Shown: positions 11,979 to 62,171 of the stretch, piece after piece
Numbering within the stretch: position 1 is the stretch's first letter
Layout: each line of letters opens with the position of its first letter
The notes under the pieces: generated by a model
What the model saw: the letters and a program-made list of their open reading frames with translations, nothing else
Told to the model about the DNA's origin: nothing
Databases searched by the model: none
Virus record (IMG/VR): IMGVR_UViG_3300025018_002258
Length of the DNA stretch: 64,000 nucleotides
Source: an uncultured virus (IMG/VR IMGVR_UViG_3300025018_002258)
Taxonomy: Duplodnaviria > Heunggongvirae > Uroviricota > Caudoviricetes
Strand: one strand, 5' to 3'
Translations under genes and position numbers: made by a program

Positions 11979-12328
11979 GGGGATGACAGGTTTCGACGTG
12001 ATCGAAGCAGAATCGTAGGAGCGTGCAGTCGTTGGCAAGGCGACTCAAAAAAGGCCAAAACAATAAGTGCAGACAACGCACTACCACTCGCAGCCTGATA
12101 ATCAGAGCGAGGCGCGACCTGAAGTGTTCCGATTCGGGAAGCGTTCATCTTAGGAACTAGCCAGCCGGGGCTCAAACGACCGACAGCGCGAAAATAATCG
12201 TGAGGTTCTAACGGTCAAGAGATAGTCAAGAAGCTGTAGACCGAGAACTGAAGCCACTGCTCTTGAAAACGCACGTAGGAGCCTTGAGGACGCAGGTTGC
12301 GGACTCGGCTTCGATGCCGACATCTCCA
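11979..12328 (+). ncRNA. ssrA: tmRNA; tag (A)ADNALPLAA
   Basis: Acceptor stem GGGGATG/CATCTCC-A with G3.U70; GGTTTCGAC near the 5' end; tag frame 12069-12101 ends LAA-TGA-TAA; T-arm TCGGC-TTCGAT-GCCGA; CCA not encoded. Confidence 0.95.
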
Positions 12329-12375
12329 TAACAAAATCCACCATCTCCATTATTTGAGATATAATAGGGAGAGAG

Positions 12376-55576: not shown

Positions 55577-56871
55577 TGAACAGTTGCCATAAATTTTATA
55601 GAAATCTCATGATTCTTATGCAAATCAAGATTCTGAAAAATAGATTCCTACAGAATAAAGGAATCTTGGACTAAACCCGAGAACTAACAGCCATGATCAA
55701 GGTCGAAAGACATTTCTGTAAAGGCAATCCCGAAATCATCAGGCTTTGCCATCTCTCTAAAGAACTCTACAATAAATGTAACTTCTTCATGAGAGACAAC
55801 TTTTCCAAAGGAATTAGAACCCCCGATATTTCTACCTTGATCAACCTTGTCAAAGATGAGGATTGTTTCAAGAACCTGCACAATACTAAGACAGCAAAAC
55901 AAACAATCAGACAATGCTTGTCGGACTGGACCAACTTCTTCAGATCTATGACTGCTTACAAAAAGAGTCCAGAAAAATTTATCAGATTCCCCAAACCACC
56001 GAAATACAAGAAAGAAATGGCACAAGTCATTTTTTACAACGAAACAATCAGGAGAAAACCACTCAAGCAAGGAATCATTCAACCAACCAATGACTGTTTC
56101 CAGATCAAATCAGATAAACCGTTTAAACAAGTAATTATAACTCCCAAGTCCTTTGGATTTGTGATAGAAGTAAGATATGAAATCCCAGATGAACCAACCA
56201 AACCAAGAGCTAAAGGCACTTGTTCAATCGATCTTGGTGTAAACAACTTAGCAGCGATAACTTCAGATCAGCATGATCCAATACTGATCAATGGTCGAAT
56301 CGTTAAGAGTTTCAACCAATGGTTTAACAAAAATCCTAATAAGTTCAACTCAATGAAAAGATACTGGAGACTAGAGAACTACTTCCACCATGTTTCCAAG
56401 ATGATTGTTGAAAACTGCAAAGCCAACAATGTTGGTACAATTATAATTGGAAAGAATGATGGTTGGAAGAACGAAATGAACATGGGAAAGAAGAATAATC
56501 AGACATTCCAGTATATACCATTTTGCAGATTGATTCAGAAGATTCAGTATAAGGCAGAGATGGTCGGGATCAAGGTTATTTTCACAGAGGAAAGTTATAC
56601 GAGCAAGGCGTCCTTCATTGATGGAGACCCATTAGATGGGTCAAAGATTAGTGGAAAGAGGATTAATCGAGGTTTGTATAAGAGTAAAGAAGGGAAATTG
56701 ATCAATGCAGATGTCAATGGATCGTTGAATATTTGCAAAAAAGTAATCCCAAAGATTGAAGAAGATCGATGGGGCAGGAGCGTTGCCGCAACGCCCGTGG
56801 CAGTGAACCCGCTAAGCTGGTTCACTGCCCAAACATAAGGAATCTTCAGATTTATGTAGATTTTTATGAAC
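55577..56871 (+). mobile_element. Non-autonomous TnpB-only element (no transposase)
   Basis: TGAAC at both ends; imperfect ~33-bp inverted repeats at 55588-55620 and 56834-56868; interrupts a gene. Confidence 0.7.
55693..56838 (+). CDS. tnpB: RNA-guided endonuclease TnpB
   Basis: SK.LYN, IDLGVNNL, YKA...GI.V...EESYTSK, NADVNGS.NI. Confidence 0.92.
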   Translation: MIKVERHFCKGNPEIIRLCHLSKELYNKCNFFMRDNFSKGIRTPDISTLINLVKDEDCFKNLHNTKTAKQTIRQCLSDWTNFFRSMTAYKKSPEKFIRFPKPPKYKKEMAQVIFYNETIRRKPLKQGIIQPTNDCFQIKSDKPFKQVIITPKSFGFVIEVRYEIPDEPTKPRAKGTCSIDLGVNNLAAITSDQHDPILINGRIVKSFNQWFNKNPNKFNSMKRYWRLENYFHHVSKMIVENCKANNVGTIIIGKNDGWKNEMNMGKKNNQTFQYIPFCRLIQKIQYKAEMVGIKVIFTEESYTSKASFIDGDPLDGSKISGKRINRGLYKSKEGKLINADVNGSLNICKKVIPKIEEDRWGRSVAATPVAVNPLSWFTAQT

Positions 56872-58529: not shown

Positions 58530-58558
58530 TTGACATAGCGCTTCAGAAGTGTTATAAT
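58530..58558 (+). promoter_or_regulatory. sigma70 promoter
   Basis: TTGACA-N17-TATAAT with extended TG. Confidence 0.85.
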
Positions 58559-59372: not shown

Positions 59373-59486
59373 GTCGGATAAGGGATTGAGATCCACGTTG
59401 TCACAATCAAACTTAACTGAAATCGGTAGACTATATGATGTCAGTGCAAATACCATAAAAAATGGGCAAAATATTACGGACGATAA

Positions 59487-60488
59487 ATGGATTACATAGG
59501 CTCGAAAATCAAGCTGAATGAATGGATTTTTGGAACCATCGAAAGCATCGTTGATGAAAATGATGATCCGTTTCTGGATGCCTGTTGTGGCTCTGGCGCG
59601 GTAAGTCGCTATGCAGCAAATGAATGTTATGAGGTCATCGCCAATGACATCATGAAGTTTGCCAGCGTCATTGCCAATGGAAGCATCGGAGTTTCAGACC
59701 CGATGCTTGTTGAAGCACGAGACCATATTCGGGCCATCGACGCCCTTGACCCCATTGAAGGGTTCTTTTTTCACAACTTCTGCGACGAATCAGACTCTCC
59801 CAGGCTCTATTTCACAGCAGCAAATGCTGGAAAGATAGACGCAGCCAGAGCTTATCTCGAATATATCCCTCCAGGAAAGCTGAAAGACTATTTGCTTTAC
59901 TGCGGGATAGAAGCCCTGAGCCGCGTTTCCAACACGACAGGTGTACAATCTGCTTTCCTGAAGAAGTTTAAAACCCGCGCTCTAAATGACTTCAGATTTA
60001 GGCTTGAAGATGTGATTCGGGGACATATATCAGGGGCTTTCAATGAAGATGTCTTGACACTTCTCACGGACCACGATCTCAAATATGACATTCTCTATCT
60101 AGATCCCCCATACAATCATCGTCAATATGGACCAAACTATCATCTTTATGAGACTTTTGTCAGGAATGACGATCCGGCAGTGAACGGATCAACAGGGCTA
60201 AGAAGTTGGCAGGAAGAATCAAAAAGTGATTTCTGTTCCAAGAAGGCTTGTTTGGAGTTTCTGAAGCAAGTGATTGGGGCCTCGACCGCCAAATGGAACT
60301 TTATTTCTTACAACTCAGACGGCATTATGACGAAAGAAGACGTGATGGGAACCTTTGAGGGTTGTCAATGTTTCGAACAGCTCTATCGGCGCTATCGATC
60401 TGATGTTAGTGAGACAAGACAGTATAACGAAAGCGACTTGGTTGAATACCTCTTCGCGATTCCAGGAAAAATTCCTGGAATCGCTTGA
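59487..60488 (+). CDS. DNA adenine methyltransferase (D12/FokI-like), second copy
   Basis: YIGSK, DACCGSG, YLDPPYN.RQY..NYH. Confidence 0.9.
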   Translation: MDYIGSKIKLNEWIFGTIESIVDENDDPFLDACCGSGAVSRYAANECYEVIANDIMKFASVIANGSIGVSDPMLVEARDHIRAIDALDPIEGFFFHNFCDESDSPRLYFTAANAGKIDAARAYLEYIPPGKLKDYLLYCGIEALSRVSNTTGVQSAFLKKFKTRALNDFRFRLEDVIRGHISGAFNEDVLTLLTDHDLKYDILYLDPPYNHRQYGPNYHLYETFVRNDDPAVNGSTGLRSWQEESKSDFCSKKACLEFLKQVIGASTAKWNFISYNSDGIMTKEDVMGTFEGCQCFEQLYRRYRSDVSETRQYNESDLVEYLFAIPGKIPGIA

Positions 60489-60513
60489 CAGTTGGGGCGA
60501 TTCGCGATATAAT
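60485..60513 (+). promoter_or_regulatory. sigma70 promoter of the Pth2-like operon
   Basis: TTGACA-N17-TATAAT. Confidence 0.88.
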
Positions 60514-60536
60514 TGGGGCTATAACGGAGGAAGAAC

Positions 60537-60887
60537 ATGTTGGACAGATTGTAGGACTCGAAACACTTCTTTGTTGTTGTTCGCACAGACATTCCCATAG
60601 AACAGCAACTCGTTCAAGCCATTCATGCCGCCCATGAATCCGGCATTCACCTCTCCCCGTCGAGCGACAAGACGAATTCCGTCGTTGTCTGCGCCGTCAA
60701 ATCGGAACAACAGCTTCTCAACGCTCAGGACAGAGTGGAAGCGAATGGTATCCGAACCATTTTGTTCCGAGAACCAGATATCGGCAACGAGGCAACCGCC
60801 TTTGCAACCGAACCTATTCCAAGCGATCAACGGCACATGTTAAAAAATCTCCAGCTTTGGAAGATGAAGGAGTTGTTGCCATGTTGA
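60537..60887 (+). CDS. Pth2-like peptidyl-tRNA hydrolase with an in-frame TAG at codon 6 (not in ORF track)
   Basis: GGAGG RBS; my translation MLDRL*DSKHFFVVVRTDIPIEQQLVQAIHAAHE...VVVCAVKSEQQL...LFREPDIGNEATAFATEP...NLQLW; VR.D, Q..HA and EPD....TA match Pth2-fold proteins. Confidence 0.75.
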
Positions 60888-60964
60888 ACGTTTTTCTTTA
60901 GGGTGGTCGTGCTCCTCCCCATTTGGCATTCTCGGATCCCCATTTGGGGCTGACATTTTGCTAA
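60881..60964 (+). CDS. Mini-ORF MLNVFL*GGRAPPHLAFSDPHLGLTFC, putative leader/arrest peptide
   Basis: AAGGAG RBS at 60867-60872; start overlaps the Pth2 stop; TAG at 60899-60901 followed by GGRAPP. Confidence 0.5.
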
Positions 60965-60981
60965 ACAAGTAGGAGAAAAAG

Positions 60982-61329
60982 ATGGAAACCGTTAGAGAAA
61001 TTCTGGACATTCTGACCGAGTGCATCAAGGAAGCTTCTGAACATCAGAAGAAAGCCAAGTGGTTGCGCCGAACCGTACATTTGCATCCAAAGCATGATGA
61101 GTGGATGGAAGAGTTGGCTGAAGTGCCGTATCGTTACGATGTCGGCACTCGCGCCAAGTACATCTCGGCTTTGCTGGCTTTTCACCATGAAATCCGTGGT
61201 CAGAGATTTGATGGCCACGATTCTTGGAGACATGATGCCTTCCCGCATGTCTTCAAGATGGTCTTGGATCAGTTGAGAGAAGAATTTTCCGAAACTCTCG
61301 CTCTTGTCTATGCTGATCTAGCAGCCTAA
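60982..61329 (+). CDS. Hypothetical helical protein, third gene of the Pth2 operon
   Basis: AGGAG RBS; followed by a hairpin at 61337-61362. Confidence 0.7.
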   Translation: METVREILDILTECIKEASEHQKKAKWLRRTVHLHPKHDEWMEELAEVPYRYDVGTRAKYISALLAFHHEIRGQRFDGHDSWRHDAFPHVFKMVLDQLREEFSETLALVYADLAA

Positions 61330-61362
61330 ATCAGCCTGGGGAGTGGGGCAACTCACTCCCCA

Positions 61363-62127
61363 ATGGAGATCACAATGGAATACCAAGAAATGAAGGAAAG
61401 ATTGACAAAAGCCCTAGAGGGTATGGATGTAACTGATCTGGAGAAATTCAAAAGAGAAATATGTATAGAGCTTACAAATAGAAGAAGAATCTGGACTGAT
61501 ATTTTGAAAGAAAAATATGAAACTGAGGGATACTACGATTTTCGTAGTTCGATAGATTGGAAAGACGCAGATCAGAGAAACAAACTCTATGAAAAAGAGA
61601 AGGCAGCCAAGAAAGCAGCAGAAACAGCAGTAAGAGAAATCATTAGAGATTTCACCGATGTGGCATGTCAGGGAGTTTTAACGGGTGGTTCTGCTCGTTG
61701 GTGGTGGAGCAAACTGGACGATCCTGAACGACAAAATAAACCAACAGAGATCAGCGATGAAGCTAAATCGCTTTCTGGTATAATGCTAAATCATTCTTTC
61801 TGGTGGCCAAACAAAGGAAGATATTTGGATTATATCGACGTAAGAGAACATGTTGCCGCTGTCCTCCATGCAGTTAGCAATGCTGAGGATATTGTCTTAA
61901 GGGATGACAGAACGATTGAAGAAGAAATATCAATGGGTGTTTCGTCCGCTGCTGTTTATGATGGTTTCAGACGTTTCTATATGTATCGTGAGAACTTAGA
62001 GAAGGAACTATTGGACGATCATCACTGTGGTGATTGTATCAAAGTGGCTTGTAGTTGTTCTCGTTGCATTATCGACGATGCTCGGGGTTCCGCCGAGGAA
62101 TTCATGAGAGAGGCAGGCTGGCTCTGA
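61363..62127 (+). CDS. Hypothetical protein with C-terminal Cys/His cluster
   Basis: HCGDC...CSC.RC. Confidence 0.65.
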   Translation: MEITMEYQEMKERLTKALEGMDVTDLEKFKREICIELTNRRRIWTDILKEKYETEGYYDFRSSIDWKDADQRNKLYEKEKAAKKAAETAVREIIRDFTDVACQGVLTGGSARWWWSKLDDPERQNKPTEISDEAKSLSGIMLNHSFWWPNKGRYLDYIDVREHVAAVLHAVSNAEDIVLRDDRTIEEEISMGVSSAAVYDGFRRFYMYRENLEKELLDDHHCGDCIKVACSCSRCIIDDARGSAEEFMREAGWL

Positions 62128-62171
62128 AAGAATCATGCTCCTTGGCTGTTCCTTAGCCAAGGAGCATCGAA

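Follow-up and report, generated by a model that had tools for sequence, protein, structure and literature searches.

The window analysed here is a stretch of 64,000 nucleotides from an uncultured virus of the Caudoviricetes, in which two short frames behind a full-consensus promoter are each broken by an in-frame amber codon. This raises the question when such genes are expressed and what their products do. The preliminary description had proposed a self-contained unit that senses and repairs failure of translation termination. Our analysis points, with moderate confidence, to a phage circuit which measures amber suppression against termination by RF1 and switches on proteins that may recycle tRNAs and ribosomes. 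The circuit is real and widespread, its gating is likely, and the copy in the window is atypical.

Organization of the locus

The following features were assigned:

60485–60513, plus strand: sigma-70 promoter TTGACA-17-TATAAT, matching the consensus at 12 of 12 positions
60537–60887, plus strand: Pth2-fold gene of 116 codons with an in-frame amber at codon 6
60552–60554, plus strand: first amber gate (TAG), inside the Pth2-fold frame
60881–60964, plus strand: leader ORF with the second amber gate at 60899–60901 and RAPP at 60908–60919
60982–61329, plus strand: gene of protein H, 115 aa, all-helical, a divergent representative of a large phage family without a name
61337–61362, plus strand: GC-rich hairpin with a GCAA loop and without a U-tract
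59387–59477, plus strand: 91-bp patch, the site of the lost suppressor tRNA
61363–62127, plus strand: 254-aa ORF, possibly co-transcribed, dispensable

Perfect TTGACA-17-TATAAT promoters occur four times between 58 and 64 kb (at 58530, 60485, 62574 and 63773), and the full-consensus promoter of the unit is also present in locus L142, a relative with 80% identity in the Pth2-like protein. The Pth2-like frame has a Shine-Dalgarno sequence at 60526–60530; five codons lead from the ATG at 60537 to the TAG at 60552–60554, followed by 110 open codons up to the TGA at 60885–60887. The leader has its own Shine-Dalgarno sequence (60867–60872), and its ATG at 60881 lies four bases 5' of the Pth2 stop, so that the two frames overlap. 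Its TAG is codon 7, RAPP follows three codons past the TAG with nine codons preceding it, and the frame ends with TAA at 60962–60964. H is preceded by a third Shine-Dalgarno sequence (60971–60975) and starts at 60982.

The promoter, the three frames with their ribosome binding sites and the hairpin are thus all present as the preliminary description had listed them. That the hairpin closes the unit is less clear. It folds better than expected (z -2.8, 0 of 200 shuffles as good), is kept in the 96% relative L141 and gives way to another hairpin at the corresponding position of L142. However, it lacks the U-tract of an intrinsic terminator and was not called as one, and an ORF without a promoter of its own follows directly; its role as the operon end is therefore unproven. 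This 254-aa ORF was considered as a core part and rejected, as it is deleted in L141; only a 22-residue Cys motif is common to it and Pth2 neighbours elsewhere. Behind it lies a strong 13-bp hairpin (62133–62167, z -5.6), which is terminator-like on the minus strand.

By appearance the window looks like part of a large phage (it encodes a tmRNA, and the sequence was found in groundwater runs); no RNA run is listed among the runs that contain it. The tmRNA, at 11979–12331, represents another ribosome-rescue function of this genome. A 381-aa ORF at 55693–56838 resembles, by eye, a TnpB/IS605 protein. A D12-class adenine methyltransferase gene (59487–60488) separates the tRNA site from the promoter and is probably a later insertion, since it is absent at that place in L142.

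A Pth2-like fold with its own invariant residues

The first frame had been described as an amber-gated Pth2. In sequence searches the protein matches Pfam PTH2 (PF01981) marginally, with an E-value of 7e-5 and 23.4 bits against a gathering score of 23, and it stays far below the NCBIfam equivalog cutoffs (PRK04322, 16.6 of 126 bits; TIGR00283, 12.1 of 82 bits). The predicted structure (pLDDT 92) superimposes on Pth2 1WN2 with a Z-score of 14.3 and an rmsd of 1.8 over 102 residues, and Foldseek aligns it to 2ZV3 (E 1.5e-6, TM 0.75), which places it within the Pth2 fold. DUF2000 protein Atu0240 (2GAX) is also matched, with a Z-score of 11.7.

The catalytic triad of Pth2 consists of Lys, Asp and Thr. 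In the alignment of the Pth2-like family the Lys of the solved Pth2 proteins corresponds to Gln, Tyr or a gap, and the Asp to an invariant Glu73. Across 106 homologs the family has instead its own set of invariant residues: Q21, H24, E73, D75 and T81. Judged from this alignment, Asp75 and Thr81 could substitute for the catalytic residues. Since the canonical residues are lacking and another set is kept, the chemistry may differ. Presumably the protein resembles the PTRHD1 subfamily. The Pth2 fold and the in-frame amber of the earlier assignment are thus retained; the protein misses the equivalog cutoffs and differs from the solved Pth2 proteins at residues of the triad, its activity as a peptidyl-tRNA hydrolase is putative, and the gating itself is inferred.

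An alternative start behind the amber was searched for, and no in-frame ATG, GTG or TTG occurs before residue 61, far behind strand 1 of the fold. Therefore no start that bypasses the amber yields the whole Pth2 domain.

The amber gate is conserved in related phages

Searches with the Pth2-like protein (the best 80 of 114 matches from one search, and 7 of 46 GenBank matches) gave 77 distinct loci. An ATG and a stop codon stand just before the domain in 54 of them, and this stop is TAG in all 54, while the terminal stops of these genes are TAA or TGA in 75 of 77. The complete collection comprises 124 distinct loci with a Pth2-like gene: 62 with an N-terminal gate, 55 with their own ATG, six long fusions and one with a TAG and no ATG. 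The N-terminal stop is TAG in 60 of the 62 and TAA and TGA in one each. Among the 55 genes with their own ATG, 40 are preceded by an amber-PP leader and H; in 38 of the 40 loci that were measured, H directly adjoins the Pth2-like start or runs across it. The 60 N-terminal TAG gates and the 40 leader-gated genes add up to 100 of the 124 phage loci in which a TAG gate belongs either to the gene itself or to the leader of its operon.

The gated proteins are diverse, with a median identity of 37% and 28 clusters at 60%; identities and tree are based on 55 entries labelled as gated, four of which were added by eye. On a quick tree ten changes suffice to explain the N-gate label, and as the label is clustered in this way, the loci do not represent independent origins. 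Compared at the sequence level, the TAG codon is kept across deep divergence of the Pth2-like proteins, and the design as a whole is kept in many related phages. Cultured carriers of an amber ahead of the Pth2-like frame are ME3, BF, RsoM2USA, Arash, XacN1 and IkeLoa; RaK2 has an in-frame TAG but no close ATG. In cellular genomes two loci only were found, both on MAG contigs. In contigs of four runs, two of them with partial cover, no variant at either amber of the window is among the variants listed.

In many GenBank jumbo phages the Pth2-like frame is unannotated or truncated, and amber gating would explain this. In L027, L030, L032 and L052 the frames of HNH-like ORFs start by repeating the N-terminus of the Pth2-like protein, which suggests that an endonuclease was inserted into the Pth2-like gene.

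Protein H co-occurs with the Pth2-like protein

Whether H belongs to the Pth2-like gene had been set beforehand as one point on which the preliminary description would stand or fall. A search with H alone, using 28 H members as queries, led to 47 loci (two of them duplicates of each other, and three on contigs already known from the earlier searches), of which 45 have a Pth2-like gene and 41 a CUA tRNA. Two proteins are fusions of H and the Pth2-like domain. The association elsewhere is hence borne out. H-like ORFs flank Pth2-like genes in a cluster of 31 loci.

The H family is large, with 2349 clusters at E<=0.001, where the helical profile may draw false matches at the weak end, and 577 at 1e-10. 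Structure prediction for H alone, as had been suggested, gave an all-helical model and no informative fold match: hits in the Atlas were all under 0.8, Foldseek returned none at E<=0.001, and the best Z-score by VIA was 5.8, to generic helices. H belongs to no PHROG family, Pfam gave one sub-cutoff match among 26 members, and no match was obtained in NCBIfam or among PDB sequences. Two further partner families were found, an HD-like domain and a family of ~80 aa, each amber-broken in some loci. The ~80-aa family occurs in 24 loci; in those with a long fusion as the Pth2-like gene (L020:771, L038:792) it has an amber gate of its own. In Serratia phage BF (L085:1821-2387) an HD-like gene with its own internal TAG follows the gated Pth2-like gene and is annotated in pieces in GenBank. 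Release-factor-like GGQ/GQH ORFs lie ~1.5 kb upstream of the module in L026, L042 and L066.

A leader with an amber and a stall motif precedes H

An ATG-TAG-PP leader is present within 200 nt upstream of 56 of 73 distinct H genes, compared with 2 of 178 control ORFs. With TAA in place of TAG the same pattern matches five times in the 73 H genes, and with TGA never. The strict pattern is missing in 17 of the 73, several of which abut a gated Pth2 or show near variants, and 18 leaders carry two ambers.

The leaders end in two ways. Of the 56, 25 have R[GSAD]PP, and in 20 of these a sense codon comes next, whereas 30 of the 31 other xPP leaders continue with a stop codon (Fisher p 1e-9). All four Pro codons are used. 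Pro-Pro-stop causes ribosome stalling. In the accessible part of PMC12992588, RAPP and RGPP are described as arrest motifs that are resistant to EF-P, while RDPP and RSPP are partly permissive, with partial activity.

The distance from PP to the H start is 65 nt in the median. The leader pairs better with the ribosome binding site of its own locus than with swapped ones in 53 of 56 cases (control ORFs, 38 of 60), and composition-matched shuffles give a median z of -3.4. In the folding model a ribosome at PP cuts the cost of opening the H binding site from 10.4 to 2.9 kcal/mol, with a fall in 52 of 56 loci. The window is the single opposite locus: here the ribosome at PP raises the cost from 4.6 to 6.6, although this result varies with the stretch folded (3.7 versus 7.9 free). 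L141 behaves like the window and L142 is flat without a switch. For the whole leader region of the window, folding is no better than in shuffles (z -0.1). The leader's own ribosome binding site is buried in the model (13.3 kcal/mol) and the leader is therefore probably coupled to translation of the Pth2-like gene. The leader frame terminates 17 nt upstream of H, and in this copy coupled translation across two successive ambers may stand in for the hairpin switch.

A proposed circuit of amber readthrough and ribosome stalling

From these data we propose the following. One promoter would drive the whole unit. Normally RF1 would terminate at the early UAG, and nothing would be made. Where a charged phage tRNA-CUA outcompetes RF1, readthrough would give the Pth2-fold protein; the same ribosomes would open the overlapping leader, read past the UAG there and come to a halt at RxPP or PP-stop, and this stall would free the Shine-Dalgarno sequence of H, which would otherwise be paired with the leader mRNA. 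In the event of failing UAG termination, the Pth2-fold protein and H would then serve as a backup, returning peptidyl-tRNA or stalled ribosomes to use and so weakening the signal. On the evidence of the sequences, both proteins are probably made only when a UAG-reading phage tRNA overrides the stops.

The single steps are not equally firm. The layout of the locus, its conservation, the linkage to the tRNA and the pairing predicted by folding are observations. Readthrough of UAG by the linked tRNA-CUA is very likely. Stalling at the leader and unmasking of the H binding site are quite probable. An action of the two proteins on the 3' ends of tRNAs or on stalled ribosomes, with recycling of peptidyl-tRNA and damping of the signal, is a tentative suggestion, favoured because of the analogy with prfB. 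The anatomy fits the sensing of failed UAG termination, with both ambers and the xPP motif conserved, so this part of the preliminary description is kept; repair, ribosome rescue and an anti-defence effect are putative functions.

If the gating is true, the amber-suppressor tRNAs which are frequent in large phages with standard code, and for which no target is known, gain conserved natural targets. The circuit adds a two-step logic, with stop readthrough followed by a ribosome stall, and the leaders of the module are candidates for arrest peptides of unusually small size. The large unnamed H family would become tied to translation. ME3, BF, Arash and the mycobacteriophage IkeLoa make the gate directly testable.

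A wider role is conceivable, and we regard it as rather unlikely: tRNA-CUA, the gated Pth2-fold protein and H might form a dedicated substitute and sensor for RF1. With host termination disabled, UAG would pass to the tRNA, and the proteins would release or recycle the product. This would amount to a self-regulated, prfB-like second route of amber termination against an unrecognised defence that targets termination, and possibly to a stepping stone to full TAG recoding.

The suppressor tRNA and what it may report

A CUA tRNA is present in 116 of the 156 loci collected, while the next commonest anticodon occurs in 15. Among 94 CUA tRNAs of the loci N73 is A in 59, G in 20, T in 12 and C in 3, and no conserved synthetase identity was found among them. 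The 31:39 position of the anticodon stem is mismatched in 28 of the 94.

The missing common acceptor identity would suit a sensor of tRNA damage, an alternative that we consider improbable. Cognate tRNAs compete for charging by their synthetase; an orphan tRNA-CUA would be charged by a host synthetase only when a defence nuclease destroys the cognate tRNAs, and readthrough would switch on a kit for the repair of tRNA ends. The HD-like domain as alternative partner, fused in XacN1 and amber-broken in BF, would fit such a kit, but the HD match is weak (E 0.016, under the cutoff). Jumbo-phage PTH2 is classed under RNA repair in the accessible text of PMC7824862. Against this reading, loss of tRNAs should also slow translation of the gated genes themselves.

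TAG is an ordinary stop outside the module

Apart from the module, the phage of the window uses code 11. TAG ends 9 of 59 ORFs of at least 150 aa in the window, a count that includes some spurious frames on the opposite strand, and 95 of 557 long frames in the loci collected. Within the 64 kb examined of this genome no genome-wide or late-block readthrough of TAG, as in code-15 phages, was seen; the CUA tRNA, the other mark of such phages, is absent from the window and present in the 96% and 80% relatives.

This bears on the idea of a code switch or timer with positive feedback, in which H or the Pth2-fold protein would inhibit RF1 and so hold amber suppression on, either to express late genes or to damage host proteins. 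For recoded phages a role of suppressor tRNAs in the timing of late genes has been proposed (bioRxiv 2021.08.26.457843, as far as its text was accessible), and in the H family basic residues are conserved and the net charge is +6 in the median. However, a scan for SD-ATG-TAG-ORF in 709 kb of overlapping loci revealed no wider regulon, as 27 of 30 matches are genes of the module, the window has just these two strong gates, and TAG still terminates ordinary genes. We give this idea little credence.

Loss of the tRNA in the window copy

In L142 the CUA tRNA stands directly before the promoter, and in L141 before the methyltransferase gene, at the end of a 2.8-kb stretch with two genes and the tRNA. 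In the window 91 unrelated bases replace this stretch. The patch matches none of the other loci collected except the near-identical L140, and no CUA tRNA was found in the 6.9 kb beyond the window in L140. Within the window, ARAGORN, ARAGORN at low threshold, Rfam, a pattern search and nhmmer detected no hidden CUA tRNA, and positive controls were recovered. Run X3 contains both alleles. By this comparison of sequences the window copy has lost the adjacent CUA tRNA at the syntenic site. As the usual fourth part is missing there, the unit is not self-contained as had been claimed.

The copy would depend on a tRNA encoded at another site of its genome or supplied by a co-infecting relative, or else on basal leak. 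No CUA tRNA lies within 2 kb of 21 of the 62 N-gated loci, and the tRNA may therefore often lie elsewhere. This weakens another explanation, which accepts the circuit in the family and sees the window copy as an orphan, silent or decaying after the loss of its tRNA. The replaced tRNA, the failing folding switch and the divergent H, which lacks the HIAY motif and has a net charge of -5, would agree with decay. But in L141 and L142, which both retain the tRNA, H diverges to the same degree, and in the window both frames, both ambers and all three ribosome binding sites are intact, which makes this explanation distinctly improbable. To read the ambers as nonsense mutations or sequencing errors, or as plain Gln codons in a genome with code 15, is hardly credible, and this reading is largely refuted: code-15 phages with CUA tRNAs exist and gene callers do give truncated products, but the same codon stands at the same place across proteins of 37% identity, TAG ends normal genes, a second TAG occurs in just 2 of 62 gated frames, and independent runs agree on the ambers.

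Comparison with known systems

Each regulatory part has a precedent, and the circuit as a whole is apparently undescribed. The preliminary description knew of no account of this architecture, and our search, covering mainly open-access literature without supplements, found none of the amber-gated design either; a prior mention is possible. The accessible parts of PMC8386662, PMC11202043, PMC6514570 and PMC4929431 contain nothing on it, and in that of PMC7824862 the word 'suppressor' is absent and the passage on jumbo-phage PTH2 mentions no amber gate. For XacN1, a jumbo phage with standard code, CUA tRNAs were found and extension of the annotated stops gave no target (PMC5852040, accessible text). 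Directly upstream of its ORF364 (HD-like and Pth2-like) we found SD-ATG-Lys-TAG in frame, as in the module.

Pth2 (PF01981; 1WN2, 2ZV3, 3ERJ) and DUF2000 Atu0240 (2GAX) have the fold in common with the Pth2-like protein, which differs from known Pth2 by its own invariant set and its distance from the equivalog cutoff.

Code-15 phages with recoded late genes, as far as described in the accessible text (bioRxiv 10.1101/2021.08.26.457843), likewise use a phage CUA tRNA to make in-frame TAG conditional; recoded phage genomes are also treated in PMC13037316, in the part accessible. Unlike these, genomes with the gated module have the standard code, their one to three ambers are confined to gene starts, and their tRNA shows no shared Gln identity.

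The arrest peptides ApdA, ApdP, ApcA and those of the SecM type (PMC12992588, accessible part) likewise place R[A/G/S/D]PP in a uORF positioned to control the next initiation. These known RAPP peptides are longer and depend on upstream residues, whereas the phage nascent chains have only 5–15 residues up to the motif and no signal or membrane segment; the window leader, with nine codons before RAPP, has no N-terminal secretion or membrane segment of the pulling-force sensors (Sec/YidC class). In addition, the phage leaders need an in-frame amber to be read first, about half of them use PP-stop, and they are encoded by the phage and not by the host.

What the module would share with prfB is a stop codon early in the frame of a gene for translation, through which expression responds to failure of termination. 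The gene of RF2 is autoregulated by an early in-frame UGA and a frameshift, and its expression rises when termination fails. In contrast to this frameshift at UGA, the module would use tRNA readthrough at UAG together with a stall leader, and a role of its product as a release factor would be conjectural.
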